Shown: positions 4,972-54,938 of the stretch, one piece after another
How the letters are laid out: each line of letters opens with the position of its first letter
Position numbering within the stretch: the stretch's first letter is position 1
Source of the DNA: Candidatus Woesebacteria bacterium RIFCSPLOWO2_01_FULL_39_23
GTDB lineage: Bacteria; Patescibacteriota; Microgenomatia; UBA8517
Assembly: GCA_001793095.1 (NCBI GenBank)
Contig: MGHG01000009.1
Coordinates: forward strand, 15,450-79,449
DNA: 64,000 nucleotides
Direction of reading: 5' to 3'
Translations under genes and position numbers: made by a program
The notes under the pieces: model-generated
Seen by the model: only the letters and a program-made list of their open reading frames with translations
Database searches by the model: none
What the model was told of the DNA's origin: nothing

Positions 4972-5763
4972 ATGGAACCTAAAGTAATATTTGAGGATGA
5001 GTACATTCTTGTAATAGATAAACCGTCGGGGTGGGTAGTGAATGACGCAGACACCACCAAAAATATTATTACTGTTCAAGGCTGGCTAGCGAAAAATTGT
5101 AAATATGAACTAGCTCAAGACAGCGTTTATAGGAGTGGAATAGTTCATAGGTTGGATAAAGAGACGAGCGGGGTACTCATTATTGCTAAAACAAAAGACT
5201 TGTTTACTAATTTACAGGCACAATTTAAGAATAGGCAAATTAATAAAAGTTATATAGCACTTGTACACGGCATTGTTGATCCGCCTGCCGGCGGAGAAGG
5301 GGAGATAAATATAGCTGTCGGGAGATTACCTTGGAATAGACGTAGATTCGGAGTACTTCCGGGAGGTAGGGAAGCAATAACACGCTATCGCGTAAATTCC
5401 AATTACCAATTCCTCTCCGAGCCGGAGAGCTCTCTTTCCGAGTCGGAGATTCTTCCAAGTCGGAGACCGAGCCGGAGGCTAAAATCCAATGAGAAATATA
5501 CACTTCTTGAGCTTTATCCTAAAACCGGAAGAACTCACCAACTAAGAATTCATCTTAAATATCTAGGACACCCGATTGTGTCTGATGGTTTTTATGCTGG
5601 CAGAAAAACATCCAGAGAGGACCTTAAATGGTGTAACAGGATGTTTTTACATGCTCAGAAAATACAATTTTCTCATCCTATTAACGCGAAGCCAATAGAA
5701 ATCGAATCTCCGATTCCAGCCGATTTAGTAGAAGCTCTTAAACTTCTTAGTGAAATAACTTAG
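4972..5763 (+). CDS. RluA-family pseudouridine synthase carrying an in-frame repeat insertion
   Basis: 263 aa. HRLDKETSGVLIIAKT catalytic-Asp motif and GRTHQLRIH motif. About 30 extra residues (SEPESSLSESEILPSRRPSRRLKS) are encoded by a palindromic repeat array at 5413-5478. Confidence 0.85.
   Translation: MEPKVIFEDEYILVIDKPSGWVVNDADTTKNIITVQGWLAKNCKYELAQDSVYRSGIVHRLDKETSGVLIIAKTKDLFTNLQAQFKNRQINKSYIALVHGIVDPPAGGEGEINIAVGRLPWNRRRFGVLPGGREAITRYRVNSNYQFLSEPESSLSESEILPSRRPSRRLKSNEKYTLLELYPKTGRTHQLRIHLKYLGHPIVSDGFYAGRKTSREDLKWCNRMFLHAQKIQFSHPINAKPIEIESPIPADLVEALKLLSEIT
5413..5478 (+). repeat. Tandem palindromic repeat array (units around CTCCGAG[C/T]CGGAG) inserted in-frame in rluA
   Basis: ctctccgagccggag / ttccgagtcggag / ccaagtcggag / accgagccggag. 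Each unit is an interrupted palindrome CTCCG-N3-CGGAG. Related arrays occur at 27881-27951 and 36505-36545. Confidence 0.6.
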
Positions 5764-5824: not shown

Positions 5825-7495
5825 ATGAGTTTTACAGAAATATCGGTTATTTTTTTTACGGCTTCAATATTTGCAATATTGGCTAAAACTATTAAACAGC
5901 CCCTTTTGATTGGTTATATATTTGCTGGATTGCTTTTGGGGGCATTGGGACTTTCGGGAAACATCCACTCTTTTGAATCATTAAGTCAGCTGGGAATTGC
6001 TTTACTGCTGTTTCTTTTAGGTTTGGAAATGAATCTTTCTGAGGTCCACTTAATCGGAAAAGTTGCTTTTATTACAGGAGTAACTCAGATATTGGTTACG
6101 ACATTTTTTGGTTTTATTTTGAGTACGTTATTTGGATTTGATCGGTTGCCCTCGCTTTATATCGCGGCGGCACTTTCGTTTTCTTCGACAATTATCGTTA
6201 TAAAACTTTTGTCAGAAAAGAAGGATCTGAATAGTTTGTACGGAAAAATTTCTATCGGGTTTCTTCTGGTTCAGGACCTTTTTGCAATTCTTATCCTGAT
6301 ATTTTTGTCTGGCCTCAAGGCAGGTACAAATCCGGATTTTATGAATTTTGCCACTTTGTTTTTAAGGGCCATTGTTCTTTTGGTTTTGGTTTGGATTCTC
6401 GCCAAAAAAATTTTTCCTATTTTCATCGAAAAATATGTCGCCGGCTCAGGTGAGCTTCTGTTCGTTACTAGTATCGCCTGGGCATTGGGTTTTGCTGCTT
6501 TTGTCGCGGGTCCCATGGGATTTTCTGTCGAGATAGGAGGTTTTCTGGCAGGCCTGTCGTTATCGACTCTACCCGAACACTATCAGATAGCTTCGAAAAC
6601 AAAACCTTTGCGTGATTTTTTTCTAATAATCTTTTTCCTGCTTCTTGGATCAAAATTGGTTATATCGAGTGCATCTTTATTGTTAATGCCAACTGCTTTA
6701 GTTTTGTCGTTTTATGTTTTGGTGTCTCACACGGTAATACTGTTTGTGATATTGGGTTTTTTAGGCTTTAGAAAAAGAACTTCATTTTTGGTAGGTTTAA
6801 CGGTCGCACAGATATCGGAATTTTCGATAATATTAGTTGCTATAGGATTATCTTTGGGTCATATTACGGGACCAATAGTTTCTTTAATTACGATGGTAGG
6901 CATAATTACGATGACGATATCCACCTATCTGATATTGGGATCGGAAAATTTATACGAGAGATTTAAACATAAGTTATCTATATTTGAACGCAAGTTTCCG
7001 AAAGAGCTCTCAATTCCTATGCACTTCGAACTCGAAAATCACATAGTTCTTGTGGGCTGCGATAGGACGGGTAAATCAATATTGTCTTATCTGGTCAGAA
7101 AAAATTTAAAGATCGTTGTCATTGATTTTAACCCGAGTGTTTATTCGAAGCTTTGTGAGCAAAAAATACCGGTGATTTTGGGTGATGTTAATGATTCAGA
7201 CGTAGCAGATTTTGCATCAATTCGTGAAGCGGGATTGGTTATTTCCACAATAGGGAACTTTAATGACAATATCAGGCTTTTGGCCGAGCTTGATAGTCAA
7301 AAGCAAACGGTAGTTATTGTTGCTTCGACAAGATCTGAAGCACTGCGGTTATACGAGCGGGGAGCAAGTTATGTTATAGTACCCGAATTTTTGGCAGGGG
7401 AACATTTAAAGCATCTGTTAATTCACTTTAAAGGTTTCTATGCCAAATTTAAGAAAATAGGCCGGCGGCAACATGAGAAATTAATTAATGGATAG
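5825..7495 (+). CDS. Cation:proton antiporter (CPA/Kef-type) with C-terminal TrkA-N/RCK domain
   Basis: 556 aa. About 12 TM helices are followed by a Rossmann-like VLVGCDRTGKSI segment typical of RCK/TrkA-N. Confidence 0.75.
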   Translation: MSFTEISVIFFTASIFAILAKTIKQPLLIGYIFAGLLLGALGLSGNIHSFESLSQLGIALLLFLLGLEMNLSEVHLIGKVAFITGVTQILVTTFFGFILSTLFGFDRLPSLYIAAALSFSSTIIVIKLLSEKKDLNSLYGKISIGFLLVQDLFAILILIFLSGLKAGTNPDFMNFATLFLRAIVLLVLVWILAKKIFPIFIEKYVAGSGELLFVTSIAWALGFAAFVAGPMGFSVEIGGFLAGLSLSTLPEHYQIASKTKPLRDFFLIIFFLLLGSKLVISSASLLLMPTALVLSFYVLVSHTVILFVILGFLGFRKRTSFLVGLTVAQISEFSIILVAIGLSLGHITGPIVSLITMVGIITMTISTYLILGSENLYERFKHKLSIFERKFPKELSIPMHFELENHIVLVGCDRTGKSILSYLVRKNLKIVVIDFNPSVYSKLCEQKIPVILGDVNDSDVADFASIREAGLVISTIGNFNDNIRLLAELDSQKQTVVIVASTRSEALRLYERGASYVIVPEFLAGEHLKHLLIHFKGFYAKFKKIGRRQHEKLING

Positions 7496-8486: not shown

Positions 8487-9188
8487 TTATTCTTCGAGAT
8501 CTTCTAAAGCAACTGTTTCGATCTCTCCGTCAGCTTTTTTGTGCACCAACTCAGGGGGAGTATACGAGATGTAGTCGATTTTCTCCGGTGGAAATGACGG
8601 AAAATCTCTGAATTTTGGCGGGCGCAACGTTTCTTTAATAAAAACCCTTACCTCGTTTTTGTTTGTTGATTTGATAAAAACTACATATTGATAACCTTGT
8701 AGAGACAACTTTTTTATTCTCGAAGACATATCATCGGAGAGTTTGCCTACATATTTAAGATCATTTGAGATTATTGAGACTCTATGGCTCCTTAGGCTCA
8801 TATTTACGACATCTCCGGCATCTAGTTTAGCCAGAATCTTGGGATCTCCAAGGTGAAGAAGTGTTACCGACTTTGTTTTCCCGGGTTCCTCGATGTAGTT
8901 TTGGGGAGTAATATTTATGGGTGCTTGCTTGTCCAACTTTTTGATATCTTTCCATTTTTCTAGAGATTTTAAAGCAATGGTATTAAAAGGGTCAATTGCA
9001 ACTACCTTTTGAGCGGTTTCTTTCGCTCTCTTGATGTCTCCGAGTTCGAAATACGCTCTTGAAAGGCGGTTAAGACAGTCGACATCTTCCGGTTCTTGTT
9101 TAATTATTTTGAGGTTTATTGTAAGGGCGTTGTCCCAATTACCTGTTAATGCTGCAGAAATGGCTTGTTGGGCAAGATCGGTATACAT
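8487..9188 (-). CDS. TPR-repeat protein
   Basis: 233 aa. The N-terminal half has TPR-like helical repeats (LNRLSRAYFELGDIKRAKETAQKVVAIDP). Confidence 0.45.
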   Translation of the reverse strand: MYTDLAQQAISAALTGNWDNALTINLKIIKQEPEDVDCLNRLSRAYFELGDIKRAKETAQKVVAIDPFNTIALKSLEKWKDIKKLDKQAPINITPQNYIEEPGKTKSVTLLHLGDPKILAKLDAGDVVNMSLRSHRVSIISNDLKYVGKLSDDMSSRIKKLSLQGYQYVVFIKSTNKNEVRVFIKETLRPPKFRDFPSFPPEKIDYISYTPPELVHKKADGEIETVALEDLEE

Positions 9189-9239
9189 TTTAGTTGGGAG
9201 TTGTTTTTTACTCTTTTGAGTATAGAAGCGTGGATTTAG

Positions 9240-9264
9240 TTGTCAAGAGGTTTTGGTGTATAAT
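9240..9264 (+). promoter_or_regulatory. Possible promoter (-10 TGTATAAT) for yebC
   Basis: gtgTATAAT at 9256-9264. The -35 is poor (ttgtca lies only 13 nt upstream). This is the divergent intergenic region. Confidence 0.3.
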
Positions 9265-9390
9265 ATCAGAGAACCTGAGACTCGGAAAACTCGGAGTACC
9301 GGAAAATCAGATAACCAGATATTCAAATCTTCTGACTTTCTGACTGTCCGATAATCTCAACTTCCGAGGATTTCGATTCTCTGTGATATT
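9263..9390. repeat. MITE-like intergenic element, about 128 bp, terminal inverted repeats ATATCAGAGAAYC
   Basis: atatcagagaacc at 9263-9275 pairs with gattctctgtgatat at 9376-9390. Internal ACTCGGA repeats. Related copies at about 20620-20730 and 23500-23597. Confidence 0.45.
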
Positions 9391-10146
9391 ATGTCAGGAC
9401 ATTCACATTATTCAACAATTAAAAGGCAAAAAGGTATAAAAGATGCTCAGAAGGGAAGAGTATTTTCTAAACTTTCAAGATTAATATCTTTAGCCGTAAA
9501 AGCGGGCGGCGGGATTACAGATCCTTCTGCTAACTATAAGCTGCGTATGGCGATTGAGTCTGCTAGGGCAGCCAATATGCCTAAGGAAAATGTAGAGCGA
9601 GCTATAAGTAGGGCGGGGGTCGAGGCGGAATCCCTTGAAGAGATGACTTATGAGGGTTACGGACCGATGGGTATAGCAGTTATTGTGGAGGTAACAACCG
9701 ATAGCAGAAACAGAACCGGACAAGAAATTAAAAACATTTTTGAAAGGGTGGGGGGGTCATTGGGTGGTCCCGGTTCAGTTTCGTTTAATTTTGATACGCA
9801 AGGATTAATTGTTATACCCAAAAGTGATAATGCTCAAACGCAAATTCTTAATCTTATTGATATGGGTGTAGAGGATTTTCAGGAAGAACAAGACTCAATC
9901 GAGATTTATACACAACAGGATAAAGTATCAGATATTAAAGAGAAATTGATAGCACAAGGTATAAACGTTGTTTCTTCGGATATTATAAAAAGACCCAAAA
10001 ATTATCAAACCCTGACAAATTCGGTTGAGGTGGAGCGGGCTTTGAATTTTTTAGAAAAAATTGAAGATCACGATGATGTACAAAAAGTGTTTACGAATAT
10101 AGATATTCCAGACGAACTTATTAATAAGCAGGAAGCTGCTTCTTAA
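9391..10146 (+). CDS. YebC/PmpR-family transcriptional regulator
   Basis: 251 aa. MSGHSHYSTIKRQKGIKDAQKGRVFSKL is the hallmark YebC N-terminus. Confidence 0.9.
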   Translation: MSGHSHYSTIKRQKGIKDAQKGRVFSKLSRLISLAVKAGGGITDPSANYKLRMAIESARAANMPKENVERAISRAGVEAESLEEMTYEGYGPMGIAVIVEVTTDSRNRTGQEIKNIFERVGGSLGGPGSVSFNFDTQGLIVIPKSDNAQTQILNLIDMGVEDFQEEQDSIEIYTQQDKVSDIKEKLIAQGINVVSSDIIKRPKNYQTLTNSVEVERALNFLEKIEDHDDVQKVFTNIDIPDELINKQEAAS

Positions 10147-20541: not shown

Positions 20542-20558
20542 GACTCATAATATGAGTC
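20542..20558. promoter_or_regulatory. Perfect 17-bp palindrome GACTCATA-A-TATGAGTC 13 nt upstream of the hppA start
   Basis: Seen directly. Candidate operator or RNA hairpin. Confidence 0.3.
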
Positions 20559-20619
20559 TAAGTTGTATTGTATATTAGTAAATAATTATATGCAAACATG
20601 GTTTTATCAGCTTTAGCCA

Positions 20620-20730
20620 AAAGATCGGACAACTCGGACTACTCGGATGACGGAAGTCCGAATACTCGGACTGTCTGAAAATCGGATGGTCTGAGTTTTC
20701 AGAGTGATCTGATTCTCAGGTGAATTAGAC
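20620..20730. repeat. Degenerate copy of the ACTCGGA-containing intergenic element
   Basis: Three ACTCGGA units plus tccgaat. The end gattctcaggtg resembles the TIR of the 9263-9390 element. Confidence 0.3.
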
Positions 20731-20825: not shown

Positions 20826-23470
<2,645 letters not shown>

Positions 23471-23499
23471 TACGGAAAGTATACAATATATATAGGTAC

Positions 23500-23597
23500 C
23501 CGGAGAACCTGAATACTCGGGTGACTCGGATGGTCAGAGAATCAAGTGGTCCGAAATTCCGAAGTCGGATTATTCAGAGTTTTCTGGTTCTCTGATG
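23500..23597. repeat. MITE-like intergenic element, about 100 bp, TIR (C)AGAGAACC
   Basis: ggagaacctgaatactcgggtgactcgga ... ggttctctgatg. The 5' 30 bp align with the 9263 element. Confidence 0.4.
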
Positions 23598-25413: not shown

Positions 25414-25496
25414 TGGCAACTTAGAACTCAAATGTTAAAACTAACAACTTTTTTCTGAAATTTTAAGCTTTAAGTTATAAGTTTTGAGCTAAAAGC

Positions 25497-27880: not shown

Positions 27881-27951
27881 GGAGGCCTCCGGCCTTTGAG
27901 GGCCTCTCCCCGAGCTGGAGAGCTCTCTGAGCTGGAAGCTGGCCCGGAGGG
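27881..27951. repeat. Palindromic repeat array (GGAGGCCTCC; GGCC-tttgag-GGCC; CCGAGCTGGAG x2) in the pilC-pilA spacer
   Basis: Same CCGAG-N-GGAG family as 5413-5478 and 36505-36545. It lies immediately 5' of the pilA RBS. Confidence 0.5.
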
Positions 27952-30693: not shown

Positions 30694-32716
30694 TTATTTT
30701 TTCTAGGTCATCAGTTATCTTATCATCCCAAAAAGACTTTGCGGTATCAAAACCATTTTTTATTAACCTTTTAGTTTTGTTTGTATTTCTAATGGTTTTT
30801 CTGATTAAGTCTTTTTCCCAAAGATCTTCTAAATTATTTACTATAATAGCATTATGATTATTCTTGGCATATTCAAGAACTCCACCATTATTTGTTGAAA
30901 CAACTAAGCAACCCGATGCCATAGCTTCCAATCCAGGTATTGGCATTCCCTCTGTTCGACTTGTCGAAAGTAGTACGTCGTGTTTTCGATAAAGTTTAAT
31001 AATTTCTTCTTTCGGGGGATCAGAAATAAACTTGTCGAACAGCTTAGAATAAGGTTTTTTTTCTCTGCTTACTAACGTAAATGAATAGTCTCCATTTTTA
31101 TTCTTTAGCATTTTTACAACTTTTGTCAAAAGGTCCGTTCCCTTAACAGTAGTGTACCAAGATATTACAGAAAGCACTTTAGTCCGTCTGTTATAAAATT
31201 TCCTATTTAAAGAATTTTGCTTTTCTTGCTGACTCATTCTGAACCTTTTATCTAAAATACAATATGTTATTTTCTGAACATTGGAATTCCCGATTTCCTT
31301 AACTTTAGATTCCATAAATTTACTATGAACAATATTTTTAGTGGGTAGTTTGTAAGCATATTCCGCTAGTTTTTTAAAACCGATGAAATTGTGCATGCTC
31401 GGTCCCCAATCTTGTGAAAAAAAGAACTTCTTCTTTGCACGCATAAAATATAAAATATATGCTGTTGGCCAAAAAGTTGCGATGAGGACATCGGGTGCTT
31501 TCTTGAAACACGCCAAGATGAAATTATCGCAGTCGGCTTGTAATTTAAACCAATTTTGTTTTCTTCCCAGCAAAAAGAAGATATTTACGTGATAGCCTTT
31601 GTCTATAAAATTATTTGCTTGTTTAAACACGATTTCACTTCCAGTATTTTTAGAAGTATTAAATACTAAATAGCTGATATTTCCCTTTGAGGACCACTCG
31701 AGTGTGCTAAAAGTCTTTTTCTTTTTGAGGTAGTGATCAAAAATAATGCTTCCTGGGTAAATTGGAAGTTTGTCATTATTTAACCCCCGTTTTCTGAAAA
31801 GCCTGATGTAAAAACCGTGTTTAATAAAATCTAGATGCGCAAAAAACAAAGATTTTAAGTAAGGTCTTTGTCTACTGACGAAGTAATAGACATATGCAAC
31901 AATTTCTTGACCTATTCTGGCAGGAAGAATCTTAATGAGAGCTCGCCTATCAAGATTCCTGATAAGTATGTAAAGGTTATTACGATGTTCCCAATACCTT
32001 TTTAAAACAACATTTTTACTGGCTGATGCAGCAACCTTGTGATAAACAGTTGAATCTGAGGTGAATACAACTTTATAACCTGCACGCCATACGCGCCAAC
32101 AAAAATCAATTTCTTCCATATAATTAAAAAGGTCTTCATTAAATAAGCCACCGACCTTGTCAATAATGGACTTTCTGATTATGCAGGCTGAACCACTCGC
32201 CCAAAATATTGGCCAAGTGCCATCGTATTGTCCCGTATCTACTTCTTGGGTATTAAATATTCTCCCTCGTGTAAAAGGAAAACCGTATTTATCGATAAAG
32301 CCTCCTGCAGCGCCGGCATAGTCAAAGTAATTTTTTCTCTGTATCATTTTGATTTTCGGTTGAACAACTGCTATTTGTTTATCGTTTTCTATCAATAAGA
32401 CCAACGAATTTAACCAATTTGGGGTAACCTTGGTATCATTATTCAGAAGTACAATATATTTACCTGTTGTTTTTTTCAGTGCCCAATTATTACCTCCGGT
32501 AAAACCAAGATTTTTTTTAAACCGATATGTTTTAACAAAATCTTTAAATCTATTTTCCAAAATTACTGCCTCATTAATTTTTGAACCGTTATCGATTAAA
32601 ATTATTTCAAAGTTTGGATATTTTGTTTTTATTAAAGAGTTAAGACATTTAACTGTATCTTGTAAGCCATTAAAATTGAGAATTACTACTGATACTTTCG
32701 GAATATTTTTTTTCAT
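30680..32716 (-). CDS. Bifunctional glycosyltransferase: N-terminal GT2 domain fused to C-terminal GT1/GT4 domain
   Basis: VSVVILNFNG...IILIDNGS (GT2 DxD region) at the N-terminus. EGMPIPGLEAMASGCLVVSTNNGG (GT4 E-x7-E region) at the C-terminus. Confidence 0.7.
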   Translation of the reverse strand: MKKNIPKVSVVILNFNGLQDTVKCLNSLIKTKYPNFEIILIDNGSKINEAVILENRFKDFVKTYRFKKNLGFTGGNNWALKKTTGKYIVLLNNDTKVTPNWLNSLVLLIENDKQIAVVQPKIKMIQRKNYFDYAGAAGGFIDKYGFPFTRGRIFNTQEVDTGQYDGTWPIFWASGSACIIRKSIIDKVGGLFNEDLFNYMEEIDFCWRVWRAGYKVVFTSDSTVYHKVAASASKNVVLKRYWEHRNNLYILIRNLDRRALIKILPARIGQEIVAYVYYFVSRQRPYLKSLFFAHLDFIKHGFYIRLFRKRGLNNDKLPIYPGSIIFDHYLKKKKTFSTLEWSSKGNISYLVFNTSKNTGSEIVFKQANNFIDKGYHVNIFFLLGRKQNWFKLQADCDNFILACFKKAPDVLIATFWPTAYILYFMRAKKKFFFSQDWGPSMHNFIGFKKLAEYAYKLPTKNIVHSKFMESKVKEIGNSNVQKITYCILDKRFRMSQQEKQNSLNRKFYNRRTKVLSVISWYTTVKGTDLLTKVVKMLKNKNGDYSFTLVSREKKPYSKLFDKFISDPPKEEIIKLYRKHDVLLSTSRTEGMPIPGLEAMASGCLVVSTNNGGVLEYAKNNHNAIIVNNLEDLWEKDLIRKTIRNTNKTKRLIKNGFDTAKSFWDDKITDDLEKIIGIN

Positions 32717-33648
32717 ACTATGGACACCCTTTCTTTTTGAAGTATTAGATAAAGCTTGTAGAAGATATTTAAAATAATATTTTTAGGGAAAAAGGATTGT
32801 AAATAGAAAATATAGCTTTTAATGAATAGAGGCCGTTCTTTAATCAGTTTTAGAAAAGTCTTCCTTGAACTACTGCTATTACCTTCATAATAATTTTGTA
32901 TTGCATGGTAATAATAAGTGAGAAATTTAAAATCACATTGGAGCCTTTTTTGTATGGGTTGTGAATATGTGATCAAATGAGAGTATCGAATCCGGCTGTT
33001 GTTGTATATAACCTTATGTATGTTTTTAGTTAAGTTGGCACCATGCACGTTATAGGAATATGAGGGGTGATTTAGATAACCAAAGGGATATTTTTTTGCA
33101 AGCCTAAGCCATAATTCGAAATCTTCCACGGGTTCATATTTTTTTTGAAATAATTTAATTCCGACGAGAGCCTGTTTACGAACCATAACTGAGGGACAAA
33201 TAAGATAATTTTTTTTTAGCAATAGTGAAAGATAGGTATTTTCCGGCACATGATTAATGTATAAGAATTGTTTATTGTGTAAATAAAAATATGCATTTGT
33301 ATAACAGAACACACACCTGCTATTTAATTTTAAAAACTTAACTTGTTTATTGATTTTATCAGGTTTAATAGTATCGTCGTCGTCAAGAAAACAGATATAT
33401 TTGCCTTTAGCTTTTTTAAGGCCGTAGTTTCTGGAATCTGCAGGCCCACTGTTTTTTTTACGATAATACTTAATTCGCTTGTCGTTATCTCTTTTAACTA
33501 CTTGTTCAGTGTTGTCATTCGATCCGTCATCAACAACTATTATTTCAAGATTGGTATAGTCCTGTTTGGTTACGCTGTCCAGAGCTCTTTGTAACATTAC
33601 TACCCTATTGTAAGTAGGTATGATCACACTTACGAGACAGTCATTCAT
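32713..33648 (-). CDS. Family 2 glycosyltransferase
   Basis: VSVIIPTYNRVVMLQRALDSV...LEIIVVDDGSNDNT is a classic GT2 N-terminus. Confidence 0.75.
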   Translation of the reverse strand: MNDCLVSVIIPTYNRVVMLQRALDSVTKQDYTNLEIIVVDDGSNDNTEQVVKRDNDKRIKYYRKKNSGPADSRNYGLKKAKGKYICFLDDDDTIKPDKINKQVKFLKLNSRCVFCYTNAYFYLHNKQFLYINHVPENTYLSLLLKKNYLICPSVMVRKQALVGIKLFQKKYEPVEDFELWLRLAKKYPFGYLNHPSYSYNVHGANLTKNIHKVIYNNSRIRYSHLITYSQPIQKRLQCDFKFLTYYYHAIQNYYEGNSSSSRKTFLKLIKERPLFIKSYIFYLQSFFPKNIILNIFYKLYLILQKERVSIV

Positions 33649-35885: not shown

Positions 35886-35924
35886 GCCTTTAACTTATAA
35901 CTAACTACTTATAACTTAATAAAC

Positions 35925-36485: not shown

Positions 36486-37061
36486 ATGGTAAAAGTCATG
36501 AGTCTCAAGTCTCTCCGAGCAGGAGGTCTCTCCGAGCCGGAGGCAAAAGTCAAAAGTTATTCTGGTTTTACTTTGGTCGAGATGCTGGTGGTCCTGGCAA
36601 TAATAGTTGTCATTTTATCTATGTCGGCATTTGGTATAGGGAGTTCTATGGAGTCAGCAAGAGATTCAAGAAGAAAAAACGATTTAAGGCAATATCACGA
36701 TCTATTAAAAGAATATGCCGGCAGGCATCAGGGTTTCTATCCGCAACGTACTGCAGTTGTTGCCGCATCCGATCTTAATAACGAGACAAACGACAGTTTG
36801 TGTAACGACTTGGGGTTAGATGCTGCGGATACAACAACTGATTGTCCGGGCGATCCAAGAGATGGTTCAACCAAAACGGTCGGAGCTTATACCTATACAC
36901 TTCGATATACATACATAACAACAGGAGGAACATGTACGGGCGGATCAGCCTGTGCTAGTGCTTATGTTTTGAGGGCAGTGTTAGAATCTTCGGACGTGTC
37001 GTGGAGTATAGATCAAGACGGCATTGTCCGGGAAAGCATATTGGGAATAGCAGGCGATTAA
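36486..37061 (+). CDS. Prepilin-type minor pilin whose 26-aa leader peptide is encoded by a palindromic repeat array
   Basis: SG|FTLVEMLVVLAIIVVIL. The leader MVKVMSLKSLRAGGLSEPEAKVKSY contains the CTCTCCGAGC(A/C)GGAGG x2 repeat at 36505-36545. There is no alternative downstream start. Confidence 0.7.
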   Translation: MVKVMSLKSLRAGGLSEPEAKVKSYSGFTLVEMLVVLAIIVVILSMSAFGIGSSMESARDSRRKNDLRQYHDLLKEYAGRHQGFYPQRTAVVAASDLNNETNDSLCNDLGLDAADTTTDCPGDPRDGSTKTVGAYTYTLRYTYITTGGTCTGGSACASAYVLRAVLESSDVSWSIDQDGIVRESILGIAGD

Positions 37062-38740: not shown

Positions 38741-39279
38741 TGAAAACTAATAACTTAAAACTTATAACTAATAACTTTAATTTGGGTTTACCCCGTACAA
38801 ACGCTCCCCGATACCCGATCGGGGTAAGTTCTGTGCGGGGACAGTCGATGGTTGAAGTTGTGTTTGCCATCGGAATAGCAGCCATTATATTGACTACTGT
38901 TGTTTCCGTTTCAGTATCTTCAGTTCGAAATTCGACTTTTTCAAAATTAAACTCTCAGGCCAATAGATATGCTCAGGATCTGAGCGAATGGTTACGCCGC
39001 CAAAGAGATCTTGATTGGGCGACGTTTAAAGCTAAAGCGAATACAACGGGCATTACCTACTGTTTTAAAACACCAAACCCGACTGCCTGGCCGGCTTCGG
39101 GAGTTTGCGGTAGTTCAGATTTTATGACAGGGACGAAGTTTATAAGACAAGCAAAGTTAAGTCTACCAAGCACAGATCCGTTGGTATTATCCGAAGTAAC
39201 TGTATCCTGGACTGACAGTCAAGGAACACATTCCGTAGTTTCAATAACGAAATTGGTGGACTGGAGGGCGCAACCGTGA
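38737..39279 (+). CDS. Prepilin-type minor pilin with a long leader (PilV/PilW-like)
   Basis: RG|QSMVEVVFAIGIAAIILTT with Glu+5. 35-aa leader. Confidence 0.55.
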   Translation: MMKTNNLKLITNNFNLGLPRTNAPRYPIGVSSVRGQSMVEVVFAIGIAAIILTTVVSVSVSSVRNSTFSKLNSQANRYAQDLSEWLRRQRDLDWATFKAKANTTGITYCFKTPNPTAWPASGVCGSSDFMTGTKFIRQAKLSLPSTDPLVLSEVTVSWTDSQGTHSVVSITKLVDWRAQP

Positions 39280-49128: not shown

Positions 49129-49797
49129 TTACAGGAATTTTTCCAGTGCGCTGGCTGCTGCGCTCTGTGCAGCCTCGCTCTTATTTTTACCTGCTCCTGT
49201 ACCTAAAGACTGTCCGTCGACAACAATTTCTATCGTAAATACTTTCGCATGATCCGGTCCCTCTTCGGATAGAACTCTATATTTCGGAGTTCCGAAACCT
49301 TTCGACTGCACAATTTCCTGTATGAGACTTTTAGGATCTTTTAGTTCTTTTTTAGCTTTAGCTTCGAGATCAACTAAGATATTATCTTTTATAAATGTTT
49401 CGGCCCCTGAGGTACCCTTATCCAAAAATAAAGCCCCGATTATGGCTTCTGTAGTATTGGCGAGAATTGAAGGATTTTCCCTACCCCCTCCGTCTTCCTC
49501 CCCCTTTGAAAGATAAATATATTTGCCTAAATCCATGTTTATTGCAACCTGCGAAAGGCTTATGGTGTTGACAAGTTGTGCTCTTAAGGCGGTTAAAAAT
49601 CCTTCCTCCTTTAGTGGAAATTTTTGGTATAAAGCGTTTGAAACAATAAATTCCAATACAGCATCGCCTAAAAATTCCAAACGTTCATTTGACCGTCTTT
49701 TACCCGGATTTTCGTTTACCCACGATCTATGAGTAAGAGCTAAATCCATTAAACCTTTATCGCCAAAAGTATTTTTAAGCTCAATGTATGTTTTCAT
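49129..49797 (-). CDS. rnc: Ribonuclease III
   Basis: ERLEFLGDAVLEFIVSNALY signature and a C-terminal dsRBD. Confidence 0.9.
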   Translation of the reverse strand: MKTYIELKNTFGDKGLMDLALTHRSWVNENPGKRRSNERLEFLGDAVLEFIVSNALYQKFPLKEEGFLTALRAQLVNTISLSQVAINMDLGKYIYLSKGEEDGGGRENPSILANTTEAIIGALFLDKGTSGAETFIKDNILVDLEAKAKKELKDPKSLIQEIVQSKGFGTPKYRVLSEEGPDHAKVFTIEIVVDGQSLGTGAGKNKSEAAQSAAASALEKFL

Positions 49798-50702: not shown

Positions 50703-50860
50703 GACATAATCAGCTCTCTACGAATAAGGATGTTTAAGGTTCTAAATACCTACCTGTGTATTAATTGATATGTATATTAAAAACGCACTAGTTATATATA
50801 CTATATTTAGTGTTTTTTTTGCATTAATATCTTTTAAATCTTTTATCCAAGAAAATAAAT

Positions 50861-50888
50861 TCTACATCACTATGTTGAGATGTAGAAT
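50861..50888. promoter_or_regulatory. Inverted-repeat operator-like site TCTACATC-N10-GATGTAGA, 30 nt upstream of the TrpR-like gene
   Basis: tctacatcactatgttgagatgtaga. A second copy (acatcacaacgttgagatgtaga) overlaps the stop codon of the same gene at 51472-51499. Confidence 0.45.
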
Positions 50889-50918: not shown

Positions 50919-51491
50919 GTGAATTCAACAACATTTTACGATAAAGAAAAAAGATTAGACAAATTATCCAAATCAGAGCAGGAAGATTTATTATTTGATC
51001 TGATAAACGCATTTGCTGTAGTAAAAAATTCGGAAGATTCTGCTTTGCTTTTACACGACCTTTTAACTAAAAGAGAAGTTCAGAACTTATCAAAAAGACT
51101 TAGAATTGCAAAATTACTTTTAGCGGACGTATTACAGGAGGATATTACAAATAAACTTCATTGTAGTTATGCTACTATTACCAAAGTAAAAGTATGGCTG
51201 GATGAAGGTGGTGACGGTTTAAGAAAGGTAATCAGTAAATTACCAGAAAGAAAGTTAAAACCTAAATATGAAAAATCTTTAGTAAAACCGGACCTACCAA
51301 AAATATTAATAGCTTTAGCGCGAGAATATGGTTTTACTAAGGAAAAACATAAACTTGATAATTTTTTAAACGACCTTGAAGGCAAACATTTAATTGATAA
51401 ACAAATTAGACAAGTTTTTAACGATGAATTCAGGTCGCTTCATAGTGATAAAGTTAAAAAAGACTTTATTAAAACTACATCACAACGTTGA
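50919..51491 (+). CDS. TrpR-like (YerC/YecD family) HTH regulator with C-terminal extension; GTG start
   Basis: LSKRLRIAKLLLADVLQEDITNKLHCSYATITKV matches the YerC/YecD TrpR-like pattern (from memory). Confidence 0.45.
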   Translation: MNSTTFYDKEKRLDKLSKSEQEDLLFDLINAFAVVKNSEDSALLLHDLLTKREVQNLSKRLRIAKLLLADVLQEDITNKLHCSYATITKVKVWLDEGGDGLRKVISKLPERKLKPKYEKSLVKPDLPKILIALAREYGFTKEKHKLDNFLNDLEGKHLIDKQIRQVFNDEFRSLHSDKVKKDFIKTTSQR

Positions 51492-51499
51492 GATGTAGA
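51472..51499. promoter_or_regulatory. Second copy of the inverted-repeat site (CTACATC-N10-GATGTAG) overlapping the stop codon of the TrpR-like gene
   Basis: A direct repeat of the upstream site (ACATCAC-N3-GTTGAGATGTAGA shared). Confidence 0.4.
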
Positions 51500-53783: not shown

Positions 53784-54938
53784 TTATTTCACTTTGATAA
53801 ATCTTTTTTTACCTATTCTGATAATATCTCCTTTGGCTAAGTTAATAATACTATTGGGTATTAAAACTTTCTGGTCGTTAAGCTCGACTGCACCCTCTAA
53901 AACCAATTTTTTAGCGTGGACCGTACTCCCCGTGGCATTGGAAAGAATAGGTAGCATTCTGGCTTGATATTGCCCAGGTTTAATGAAAATTTCGATTTGC
54001 GCCTCGTTATATTTGTGCTCTTTATGTACTTGGTCAAATTTTAACTCGGCTTGGTTAGCTGAAGATTTGCCGAAATAATTTGACGTAATTTCTTTAGCTA
54101 GGTTTCTCTTGAGAAGATATGGATTTCGATCATTAGGTTTATTCTCTATTATGACGTTGGTACATAATTCGTAATACTCAGGAATCAAATCGTCTGATAT
54201 TGACATTACCTTTCCATATATATCGAAAGCATTTGTATTTATTGGAATGTAATTTCCTGCGGATTTACTCATCTTAGAGCCGTCAGTTCCTAATAAAAGT
54301 TTCATTATTACCACGTCTTGTTCTTTCTGTCCGTAGCGCTTTTGCATCTGTCTGCCCATAAGAAGGTTAAATTTCTGATCAGTCCCTCCCAACTCTACGT
54401 CGGCTCTCAGCCGTACTGAGTCATACCCCTGCATTAGTGGGTATAGAGTTTCAAGATAGGATACATCGTCACCCTCCTCAACTCTTTGACGGAAGTCTTT
54501 TCTCTCAAAAATTTGAGCGAGAGTTGCTTTTGATGCAAGTTCAAATATTTTATATAAATCCATTTTTGCTAACCAGGTACTGTTATACTCAAATTTTACT
54601 TTTTTTAAATCTAATATTTTCCCCGCCTGTTCCTTGTAAGACGTCATATTTTTTTCTATTTCTTCTTTTGTTAAAACTTTCCTTGAGACATTCCTTCCGC
54701 TAGGATCACCTATACTCGCGGTAAAATCTCCAATGACAAGAACTGCCTGATGTCCTAAATCTTGGAATTGGCGTAGTTTTCTTAGAACTACCGCATGACC
54801 CAAATGAAGATCTGTTCCCGTAGGATCAATTCCAAGTTTAACGATCAGTTTTTCACTGGATCTAAGCTTGTTAATGAGAGATTCTCTGACTATTATCTCA
54901 TCAACGCTGCTCGTCAAAACTTCATCGATTTTATCCAT
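53784..54938 (-). CDS. tyrS: Tyrosine--tRNA ligase
   Basis: HLGH (DLHLGHAV) and KMSKS motifs. C-terminal S4-like domain. Confidence 0.9.
   Translation of the reverse strand: MDKIDEVLTSSVDEIIVRESLINKLRSSEKLIVKLGIDPTGTDLHLGHAVVLRKLRQFQDLGHQAVLVIGDFTASIGDPSGRNVSRKVLTKEEIEKNMTSYKEQAGKILDLKKVKFEYNSTWLAKMDLYKIFELASKATLAQIFERKDFRQRVEEGDDVSYLETLYPLMQGYDSVRLRADVELGGTDQKFNLLMGRQMQKRYGQKEQDVVIMKLLLGTDGSKMSKSAGNYIPINTNAFDIYGKVMSISDDLIPEYYELCTNVIIENKPNDRNPYLLKRNLAKEITSNYFGKSSANQAELKFDQVHKEHKYNEAQIEIFIKPGQYQARMLPILSNATGSTVHAKKLVLEGAVELNDQKVLIPNSIINLAKGDIIRIGKKRFIKVK

Follow-up and report, generated by a model that had tools for sequence, protein, structure and literature searches.

Introduction

Intervening sequences (IVSs) of ribosomal RNA (rRNA) genes, together with the S23p/PF05635 open reading frame (ORF) associated with them, have been known since about 1990, and their origin, their mobility and the function of the protein are still unexplained (PMC4990558, PMC11270868). 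The IVSs are excised by RNase III (PMC4990558, PMC11270868), such cleavage being known for Coxiella and Salmonella (PMC4990558). The Coxiella IVS, which is also removed by RNase III, carries GACAGAT heptamers upstream of S23p, and the number of these heptamers differs between strains (PMC4990558). S23p is a toroidal homopentamer (PDB 2GSC), as relayed in PMC4990558, which cites Lin 2006. Within the candidate phyla radiation (CPR), a survey of rRNA insertions lists 23S_rRNA_IVP ORFs inside such insertions (PMC11270868).

Here, we analyzed a 64-kb stretch of DNA from Candidatus Woesebacteria (Microgenomates, CPR), referred to as the window, which contains three small palindromic elements of 100-130 bp, e1, e2 and e3. 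The source-genome sequence that we examined amounts to 84 kb, as it includes 10 kb on each side of the window. An earlier note on this DNA had described the elements as resembling miniature inverted-repeat transposable elements (MITEs). The closest known kind of element is, however, the rRNA IVS and not the MITE of a DDE transposon. The window copies are likely to be derivatives of an IVS-type palindromic element that lack the ORF and are located outside of rRNA genes, and the analysis suggests that the rRNA intervening sequence is here a dispersed, insertion-type element.

Repeat architecture of the elements

The window holds exactly three elements, e1 (9260-9392), e3 (20623-20720) and e2 (23499-23595), all of them intergenic. 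Each is a tandem array of about 8-12 units that share a YCNGA core (mostly TCNGA) at a spacing of 8 or 9 nt, with the central position of the core occupied by a purine in the 5' half of the element and by a pyrimidine in the 3' half. Due to this swap between the halves, each of the two strands is able to form a long, imperfect hairpin of ~35-60 bp. Each arm comprises 5-8 units and opens with a conserved terminus of ~33 nt, YCRGAGAAYCRGAAWACTCNGAAAACTCRGA. The earlier note had distinguished terminal inverted repeats, CAGAGAAYC, from internal ACTCGGA repeats, and the sequences that it quoted were indeed recovered at their positions. Both motifs are present, but as parts of one periodic array rather than as separate features, with the CAGAGAAYC inverted repeat being the start of the ~33-nt terminal consensus. 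The proposal that these are small non-coding elements, with inverted termini, of a family with multiple copies proved correct, further copies being found in many related genomes.

For 26 short forms taken from many genomes, neighboring units were spaced by 8 nt in 127 cases and by 9 nt in 75, with 8-16 units per element. The centre of the core was A in 81, G in 61, T in 25 and C in 4 units of the 5' halves, and T in 58, C in 37, A in 13 and G in 8 units of the 3' halves. Pairing of the core centre with a core centre of the opposite arm was seen in 105 of 159 units.

Within the 64 kb, a density of at least six TCNGA per 100 nt is reached in three regions only, namely e1, e2 and e3, against a background of 0.49 per 100 nt. 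Chains of seven YCNGA units at 8-9-nt spacing occur in e1 and e3 only, the longest chain in 200 shuffles having three units. CAGAGAAYC is matched six times in the window (0.68 expected; none of 100 shuffles reached six), with four of the six matches at element ends or within e2, and ACTCGGA is matched 11 times (5.1 expected), six of these inside the three elements. An nhmmer profile of 57 termini, drawn from other genomes only and none from the window, gave matches in the 64 kb at e1, e2 and e3 only, with E-values down to 3e-9 (e1: 8e-9 on the plus and 6e-4 on the minus strand; e2: 7e-9 on the minus and 2e-7 on the plus strand; e3: 3e-9). The window elements are almost certainly members of one palindromic Microgenomates family. 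It should be noted that all three copies lie within 14.3 kb, with none in the other ~70 kb examined, including the 10 kb on either side of the window, and that with n=3 this clustering is not statistically compelling.

Family members in other genomes

When one genome per species was searched for the terminus pattern, 74 matches were obtained, approximately the number estimated for chance, of which about a dozen are real members, in CPR genomes. These real members each continue into at least eight further units. The remaining matches do not belong to the family and include coding repeats of Bacteroidales, a conserved gene of anaerobic methanotrophic archaea (ANME)/Methanosarcinales and similar cases. 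A stricter pattern, applied to metagenome contigs, gave 32 loci, at 31 of which arrays were detected. Hosts of the family are metagenome-assembled genomes (MAGs) of Patescibacteria, Chisholmbacteria, two Woesebacteria, Collierbacteria and Roizmanbacteria, as well as a few MAG contigs that are labelled otherwise. In most members, the ~33-nt terminus is found at both ends in inverted orientation, and dozens of copies are present in other genomes. Many members have a -10-like box 1-3 nt outside of the terminus, and in another genome the distance between element ends and the 5' ends of tRNA-Lys and tRNA-Trp is 3-4 nt.

On viral contigs, the family-specific pattern had no matches, giving no sign of a phage vector. 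A scan of viral contigs for pure arrays returned 25 loci, mostly 8-nt microsatellites with a TCGGA core and a few mixed-centre arrays, with no PF05635 gene nearby, and was not informative for the family. Arrays of TCGGA/TCTGA/TCCGA with an 8-nt period were seen in IMG/VR viral and giant-virus contigs (L003/L012/L022, at ~3787/6818/10643, and L016, L019, L020 and L025); these have a mixed centre base, AT-rich promoter-like DNA close by and no PF05635 gene in their vicinity.

The long form and its occurrence in 23S rRNA genes

At eight loci, the arms are ~400 bp apart and surround an ORF of 121 aa, which we refer to as the long form. The ORF belongs to PF05635, "23S rRNA-intervening sequence protein" (E 4e-16), and to TIGR02436, "four helix bundle protein" (E 3e-16), and its product is termed here the intervening sequence protein (IVP). 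IVP/S23p is a four-helix bundle protein and a homologue of Avd, the accessory protein of diversity-generating retroelements. The solved structure nearest to the 121-aa IVP is the S23p pentamer of Xanthomonas, 2GSC. The purine-type arm constitutes the 5' flank of the ORF, while the end of the ORF, W-R-S-D-K-F-stop (TGGCGTTCCGATAAATTCTGA), runs into the first units of the pyrimidine-type arm, and the two arms pair across the ORF over 38-87 bp. One MAG, Betzabe_MAG191, contains a long form (L045) together with two short forms (L042 and L082). The IVP subfamily has a wide distribution in Microgenomates, and the contigs that carry it are often of ~1 kb.

Homologous IVPs (69-71% identity) with TCRGA arms are located inside 23S rRNA genes, as recognized by the Rfam model for the large subunit (LSU), in Woesebacteria GW2011_GWB1_39_10b (L142) and in a Roizmanbacterium (L143). 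A profile built without the arms of these two loci still finds them, with E-values of 8e-10, 8e-8 and 4e-8. In both, the IVP is nested in an intron-like insertion with a weak group I match, near E. coli position ~2500-2590. In addition to a group I intron and a LAGLIDADG gene, the two 23S genes (L142, 2850-3104 and 3830-4575; L143, 2718-3197 and 3830-4570) contain another intron-like insertion. It is this second insertion that hosts the IVP gene and its arms, one selfish element being nested within another. Outside of rRNA, the long form was found at no fewer than three unrelated sites of the chromosome, namely between genes for a PMT-like glycosyltransferase and a Cys-rich surface protein (five loci, several species), upstream of mltG-rpoB and beside mreB.

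Probable origin by insertion

For comparison, we used four Woesebacteria loci (L102-L105, 22 kb each) in which the pilB...holB-gyrB-hppA synteny is kept. Neither arrays nor nhmmer matches were found in any of the four. As the syntenic spacers of these relatives lack them, the elements look like insertions, and we consider it quite probable that they are. In the window, the gyrB-hppA spacer, which contains e3, has a length of 297 nt. The corresponding spacer has 171 nt in L104 and 81-84 nt in both L102 and L103, while in L105 it has 9 nt and follows an extra gene. In L104, e3 is lacking, and the spacer is ~75% identical to that of the window up to a few nt from the e3 edge; this empty-site alignment covers the left flank only, the right flank being too diverged. 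For e1, deleting 9267-9383 would leave TATAAT, 9 nt and the yebC ATG, as found in L104, which places e1 downstream of the -10 box and ahead of the start codon. In all four relatives, holB is preceded by TATAAT, CATAAT or TATACT, followed by 8-9 nt and the ATG, an arrangement of the leaderless type.

The expectations that follow from a transposase-driven MITE were not borne out. Target-site duplications were not found in 11 non-redundant elements with both ends canonical, where the best flank repeat had a mean of 1.18 nt, as compared to 1.21 nt in mismatched-flank controls. No transposase with matching inverted repeats was seen at ~60 loci, and none adjoins any of ~45 family loci, the partner gene being PF05635. 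For the window, the earlier statement that no transposase is present agrees with the Pfam annotations of its whole length, which also contain no reverse transcriptase and no PF05635 gene; the one integrase, of the Xer type, is syntenically conserved in the relatives. An Rfam scan of the window at gathering thresholds gave one tRNA only, with no rRNA and no match for the elements. The MITE-like description thus holds for the architecture, for the insertion polymorphism and for the existence of a longer, gene-carrying relative, but not for the transposase mechanism. The family in the window is old and of low density, with no recent burst.

The Y1_Tnp of the relative L103 was considered as a mobiliser and rejected, as it accompanies a different hairpin family that is absent from the window. 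The gene (L103, 6461-7156) encodes 231 aa and is RAYT/IS200-like (PF01797). The hairpins, of the ACCCGACGGGT type, are found near it (7156-7251) and in L102 (7010-7305), and form a separate family resembling repetitive extragenic palindromes (REPs).

RNA folding and RNase III

Transition-type mismatches between the arms appear as G.U wobbles on one strand and as A.C mismatches on the other. Wobble-type mismatches were one-sided per element in 144 cases, as compared to 130 ± 4 expected (p 0.002), and many elements fold better on one strand by 10-20 kcal/mol. This strand bias hints at selection on an RNA, for which it is modest evidence. In the window, e1 folds with -50.4 kcal/mol on the minus strand (z -5.4) and with -42.5 kcal/mol on the plus strand (z -4.2), e3 with -46.3 kcal/mol on the plus strand (z -4.7) and e2 with -40.4 kcal/mol (z -2.5), the right two thirds of e2 being a small hairpin. 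As the palindrome is alike on both strands, its orientation is hard to assign. A sponge RNA of the Csr/Rsm type was also considered and rejected, with no Rfam match and with the GGA motifs paired in the stem and not exposed in loops.

The window encodes an RNase III of 222 aa with a dsRNA-binding domain (rnc, 49129-49797 on the minus strand; PF00636, PF14622 and PF00035; mapped from L148, 15142-15810). By analogy with the rRNA IVSs, this enzyme could trim the hairpin from transcribed copies of the elements, a possibility that we take seriously and yet place slightly short of probable.

Repeat arrays around other PF05635 genes

Short-repeat arrays also surround other PF05635 genes, with different units in each case. 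Two distant homologues on one Chisholmbacteria contig are found with TGATAGA at a period of ~10 nt and with GATCAAGC at a period of 8 nt, respectively. The 23S helix-45 IVS of Azospirillum lipoferum (pAZO_p2, L144) has CAGAGGA/CGGAGGA against TCCTCTG at a period of 7 nt. Plasmids of Geminocystis and Nostoc have (GGGAAAA)n upstream of the gene and (TTTTCCC)n downstream, Gemmatirosa has GGAGGGCA / CTCCTGCC, and Pseudanabaena and Oscillatoria have purine-rich units as direct repeats on both sides. Given that different IVP lineages sit in different repeat arrays, the IVP might recognise the repeat units, a proposal drawn from sequence comparison that we regard as rather doubtful. On the Pseudanabaena galeata plasmid pPg_01 (L149, 45968-46888), a PF05635-like four-helix-bundle gene is located between cas6 and cas4, with long direct arrays of (CTAAAAG)n and (CCAAAAG)n on its flanks.

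Proposed mechanism and rival explanations

In the reading that we prefer, e1-e3 would be old insertions that spread by a mechanism other than a DDE transposase. The transcribed stem would be a substrate for RNase III, and the hairpin would be trimmed as in rRNA IVSs, such that insertions in leaders, beside tRNAs and in rRNA would be harmless and hence tolerated. The IVP would bind the repeat units, and copies with no ORF would then depend on an IVP provided in trans.

Several points weigh against this reading and should be considered. The 84 kb of the source genome contained neither an IVP gene nor an rRNA operon nor a long form, and tblastn and hidden Markov model (HMM) searches of the window for the IVP gene gave no match. 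The window copies resemble each other no more than they resemble copies of other genomes, with no indication of recent activity. The absence of the elements in relatives could formally reflect loss, and the nearest relatives are only ~87% identical in HppA, such that the exact boundaries of the insertions cannot be fixed. The strand on which folding is favored does not follow the sense of the downstream gene in a consistent manner, being antisense to yebC for e1 and antisense to both neighbors for e3. The link between IVP and repeats, moreover, is based on about nine examples, two of which, both cyanobacterial, have direct and not inverted arrays.

The same observations bear on other explanations. 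If e1-e3 were classical MITEs, they would be deletion derivatives of an insertion sequence (IS), and a DDE transposase with specificity for the CAGAGAAYC inverted repeats would mobilise them in trans. Inverted termini, small size, non-coding sequence, several copies and absence at the syntenic sites of relatives would all be expected of such elements. Nonetheless, they come with neither a target-site duplication nor, in the window or at family loci, a transposase, and such arms were found to enclose no gene other than PF05635. Rather than a discrete inverted repeat, the termini consist of the units with which a periodic array begins. The 33-nt terminus is shared, in conserved form, by several candidate phyla, whereas copies of a single genome have diverged, which is the opposite of a MITE burst. 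We thus judge this origin improbable. Non-mobile cis-regulatory operator arrays, made of 8-9-bp iterons with a pseudo-palindromic TCNGA core to which a small DNA-binding protein binds cooperatively, would account for the strict 8-9-bp periodicity of the TC-N-GA core and for the fact that all three elements touch promoter regions (e1 the TATAAT box, e2 the position of the holB -35 box and e3 a site ~27 nt upstream of the hppA -35 box). The spacers of a compact genome are, however, mostly promoter in any case, and the arrays are missing at the same promoters of the four relatives, where the genes and the synteny are kept. Pairing of purine and pyrimidine centres between the arms (105 of 159) is not expected for a symmetric double-stranded DNA site, and the same arms flank an ORF within rRNA genes and abut tRNAs, all of which leaves operator arrays as a distinctly improbable explanation.

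Two further possibilities treat each copy as a product of its own locus. Structured RNAs that evolved separately for each downstream gene, as leaders or as small RNAs (such as a sponge for a protein that binds GGA motifs), would be compatible with the strong folds (z -4 to -5), with the -10-like box 1-3 nt before the terminus in many members and with the strand bias of wobble-type mismatches per element. Against this, the downstream genes are unrelated (yebC, pilB/holB, hppA, tRNAs, mltG and others), the orthologous leaders lack the elements, there is no Rfam match, the GGA/AGA motifs are buried in the stem and the palindrome is the same on both strands, making such RNAs a very improbable explanation. 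We consider equally improbable a local origin, in which microsatellite-like arrays of 8-9 nt would have arisen by slippage and become palindromic through template switching, independently at each site. Such a process finds parallels in the variable number of units (8-16), in the 8-nt TCGGA-core microsatellites of unrelated viral contigs and in the heptamer number that varies between Coxiella strains (PMC4990558). Independent slippage would not, however, recreate so specific a terminus, given that its ~33 nt, spacers included, are common to different genomes and to the rRNA-borne form (E 1e-8 to 1e-10).

A broader version of the IVS-type reading is that rRNA IVSs represent one manifestation of a widespread superfamily of mobile palindromes, in which a ring-shaped PF05635 protein would recognise lineage-specific arm repeats of 6-10 nt and promote their spread or maintenance, with e1-e3 as non-autonomous derivatives. 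Spread might then use the hairpin RNA released by RNase III together with a reverse transcriptase, and, owing to their removal from the RNA by trimming, hairpins of the e1-e3 type could become established in rRNA as well as in promoters, leaders and the flanks of tRNAs. This proposal is speculative and, taken as a whole, unlikely.

Gene context and other features of the window

Shine-Dalgarno motifs are almost absent in the window, and many first genes have a -10-like box of the TATAAT type 6-11 nt before the ATG (for example, the starts at 1582, 3873, 4972, 12660, 32713-33648 and 53784-54938), which suggests that leaderless mRNAs are widespread in this Woesebacteria lineage. The HppA protein of the window is 87-88% identical to named Woesebacteria proteins, and the window also contains a DUF5656 gene. 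Its DNA is likewise present in the NCBI assembly GCA_001792065.1 and on an ENA contig of 322 kb (ERZ27254809, k141_2520311).

The whole imperfect palindrome of e1 (9260-9392, on neither strand in particular), as defined by its sequence, fold, unit map and nhmmer matches, is located between a TPR gene (8487-9188, minus strand) and yebC (ATG at 9391). Its core (9266-9383) extends from TCAGAGAACC to GATTCTCTG, the inverted repeat extends to ATAATATCA / TGATATTAT, overlapping the AT of the yebC ATG, and the terminal inverted repeats are ATATCAGAGAACC / GATTCTCTGTGATAT. On the plus strand, the 5' arm (9266-9319) opens with the family terminal consensus and contains seven YCNGA units at 8-9-nt spacing with the centres A, T, G, G, G, A and A. 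The 3' arm (9331-9383, plus strand), with TCTGA, TCTGA, TCCGA, TCCGA and a degenerate TTCGA/TCTCTG, complements it. A perfect TATAAT box (9259-9264, plus strand) stands 2 nt before the core and is inferred to be the promoter box of yebC. Just left of e1, the TPR gene has a promoter-like site, TTGACA-16-TATACT (9219-9246, minus strand), that agrees with 11 of 12 consensus positions, and another promoter-like site, TTGAAT-16-CATAAT with a TG (9388-9415, minus strand), lies within the first yebC codons and reads into e1.

The element e2 (23499-23595) has CCGGAGAACCTGAATACTCGGG... as its left and ...GGTTCTCTGA as its right terminus, contains CAGAGAATC internally, at 23535, and is flanked by the divergent genes for a HolB-like protein (22838-23470) and PilB (23674). 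The -10 box of the holB-like gene, TATACT (23478-23483, minus strand), stands 7 nt before the ATG at 23470, and e2 ends 15 nt upstream of this box, at the position of the TTGACT -35 box of the relatives. The element e3 (20623-20720) has eleven units, with the canonical terminus at its right end only (minus strand: CCTGAGAATCAGATCACTCTGAAAACTCAGA), the other end being degenerate. Of the contexts that had been assigned earlier, e1 does abut the yebC ATG, and its position between TATAAT and this ATG, where it would form a leader, supports the idea that such elements may donate leader sequence. The element that precedes pilB, however, is e2 and not e3; the latter is flanked by the stop codon of gyrB (20826) and by the promoter of hppA (20596 to 20567). 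This promoter-like site, TTTGCA-18-TACAAT (20567-20596, minus strand), has e3 ~27 nt upstream of it. The hppA leader (20542-20596, minus strand) consists of the promoter-like site followed, before the ATG, by a short hairpin, poor in GC, and a run of T (GACTCATATTATGAGTC + TTTGTTTTT), an arrangement also found in L102 and L103 (about 9917-10000); it may be a terminator or an attenuator of this pyrophosphatase gene.

Other repeats were seen in the window. AT-rich repeats of the AACTTATAACT type are found at 35892-35916 and 38745-38783, and inverted at 25452-25491, in spacers near type IV pilus/pseudopilin genes. Two copies (84% identical) of a hairpin, CTACATCAC..GTTGAGATGTAG, at 50855-50886 and 51468-51499, flank a Trp_repressor-like gene (50919-51491). 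A small palindrome, CTCTCCGAGCnGGAGAGCTCTCT, occurs three times (5413-5435, 27906-27928 and 36511-36533), twice within ORFs and once in a spacer that precedes a pilin gene.

Comparison with known systems

A full-text literature search of incomplete coverage found no description of dispersed IVS arms with no ORF or of such MITEs in the CPR, and dispersed copies of this kind thus appear, provisionally, to be undescribed. The same arms are found here in three settings, namely around an ORF in rRNA, around an ORF at chromosomal sites, and with no ORF in promoters and leaders, which gives direct comparative support to the old idea that IVSs are mobile elements. That PF05635 lineages are each found in their own short tandem repeat offers a testable handle on the protein, while e1, a 117-bp hairpin between a -10 box and a start codon in a largely leaderless genome, is a natural experiment.

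Of the systems with which the family can be compared, TRAP serves as a mechanistic analogy only: it is a ring protein on tandem RNA repeats, and the arms described here present 5-8 evenly spaced motifs. The IVP is, however, unrelated to TRAP, and binding of a ring to the repeats is hypothetical. Tandem arrays are also known as operators or centromeres of ribbon-helix-helix (RHH) proteins, such as the ACTC boxes with 4-bp spacers of ParG/parH, the omega heptads and the metboxes of MetJ. The elements share with these their tandem units of 7-9 bp, direct and inverted, near promoters, and ACTC recurs within ACTCGGA, but there is no cognate or adjacent RHH gene in the annotations and no conservation at orthologous promoters, and the hairpin centres covary. 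REPIN-RAYT systems consist of REP doublets and of a single-copy Y1 transposase flanked by REPs. They resemble the present family in having a small repeat-flanked gene whose sites are conserved between several species, along with hairpin doublets that carry no gene and are dispersed in intergenic DNA. The gene here, however, encodes a four-helix bundle and not an HUH/Y1 protein, and the units are of 8-9 nt and not REPs of 20-40 nt with a GTAG head.

MITEs are similarly small and non-coding, with inverted termini, multiple copies, presence or absence between relatives and a longer gene-carrying form with the same ends. They differ from the family in that it has no target-site duplication, a partner gene that is not a transposase, termini embedded in a periodic array and diverged copies within a genome. 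As for rRNA IVSs, the window copies differ in being outside of rRNA, in intergenic DNA and leaders, in having no ORF and in being present in several copies, and the rRNA-borne relatives are not in helix 9, 25 or 45. Nonetheless, the rRNA IVSs with an S23p ORF (Leptospira; Coxiella, PMC4990558; CPR, PMC11270868; Azospirillum) have, like the present family, inverted arms that form a long stem and an optional PF05635 ORF of ~120 aa, and in both the arms consist of tandem repeats that are short and purine-rich, namely GACAGAT in Coxiella, CAGAGGA/CGGAGGA in Azospirillum and TCRGA plus 3-4 nt here.

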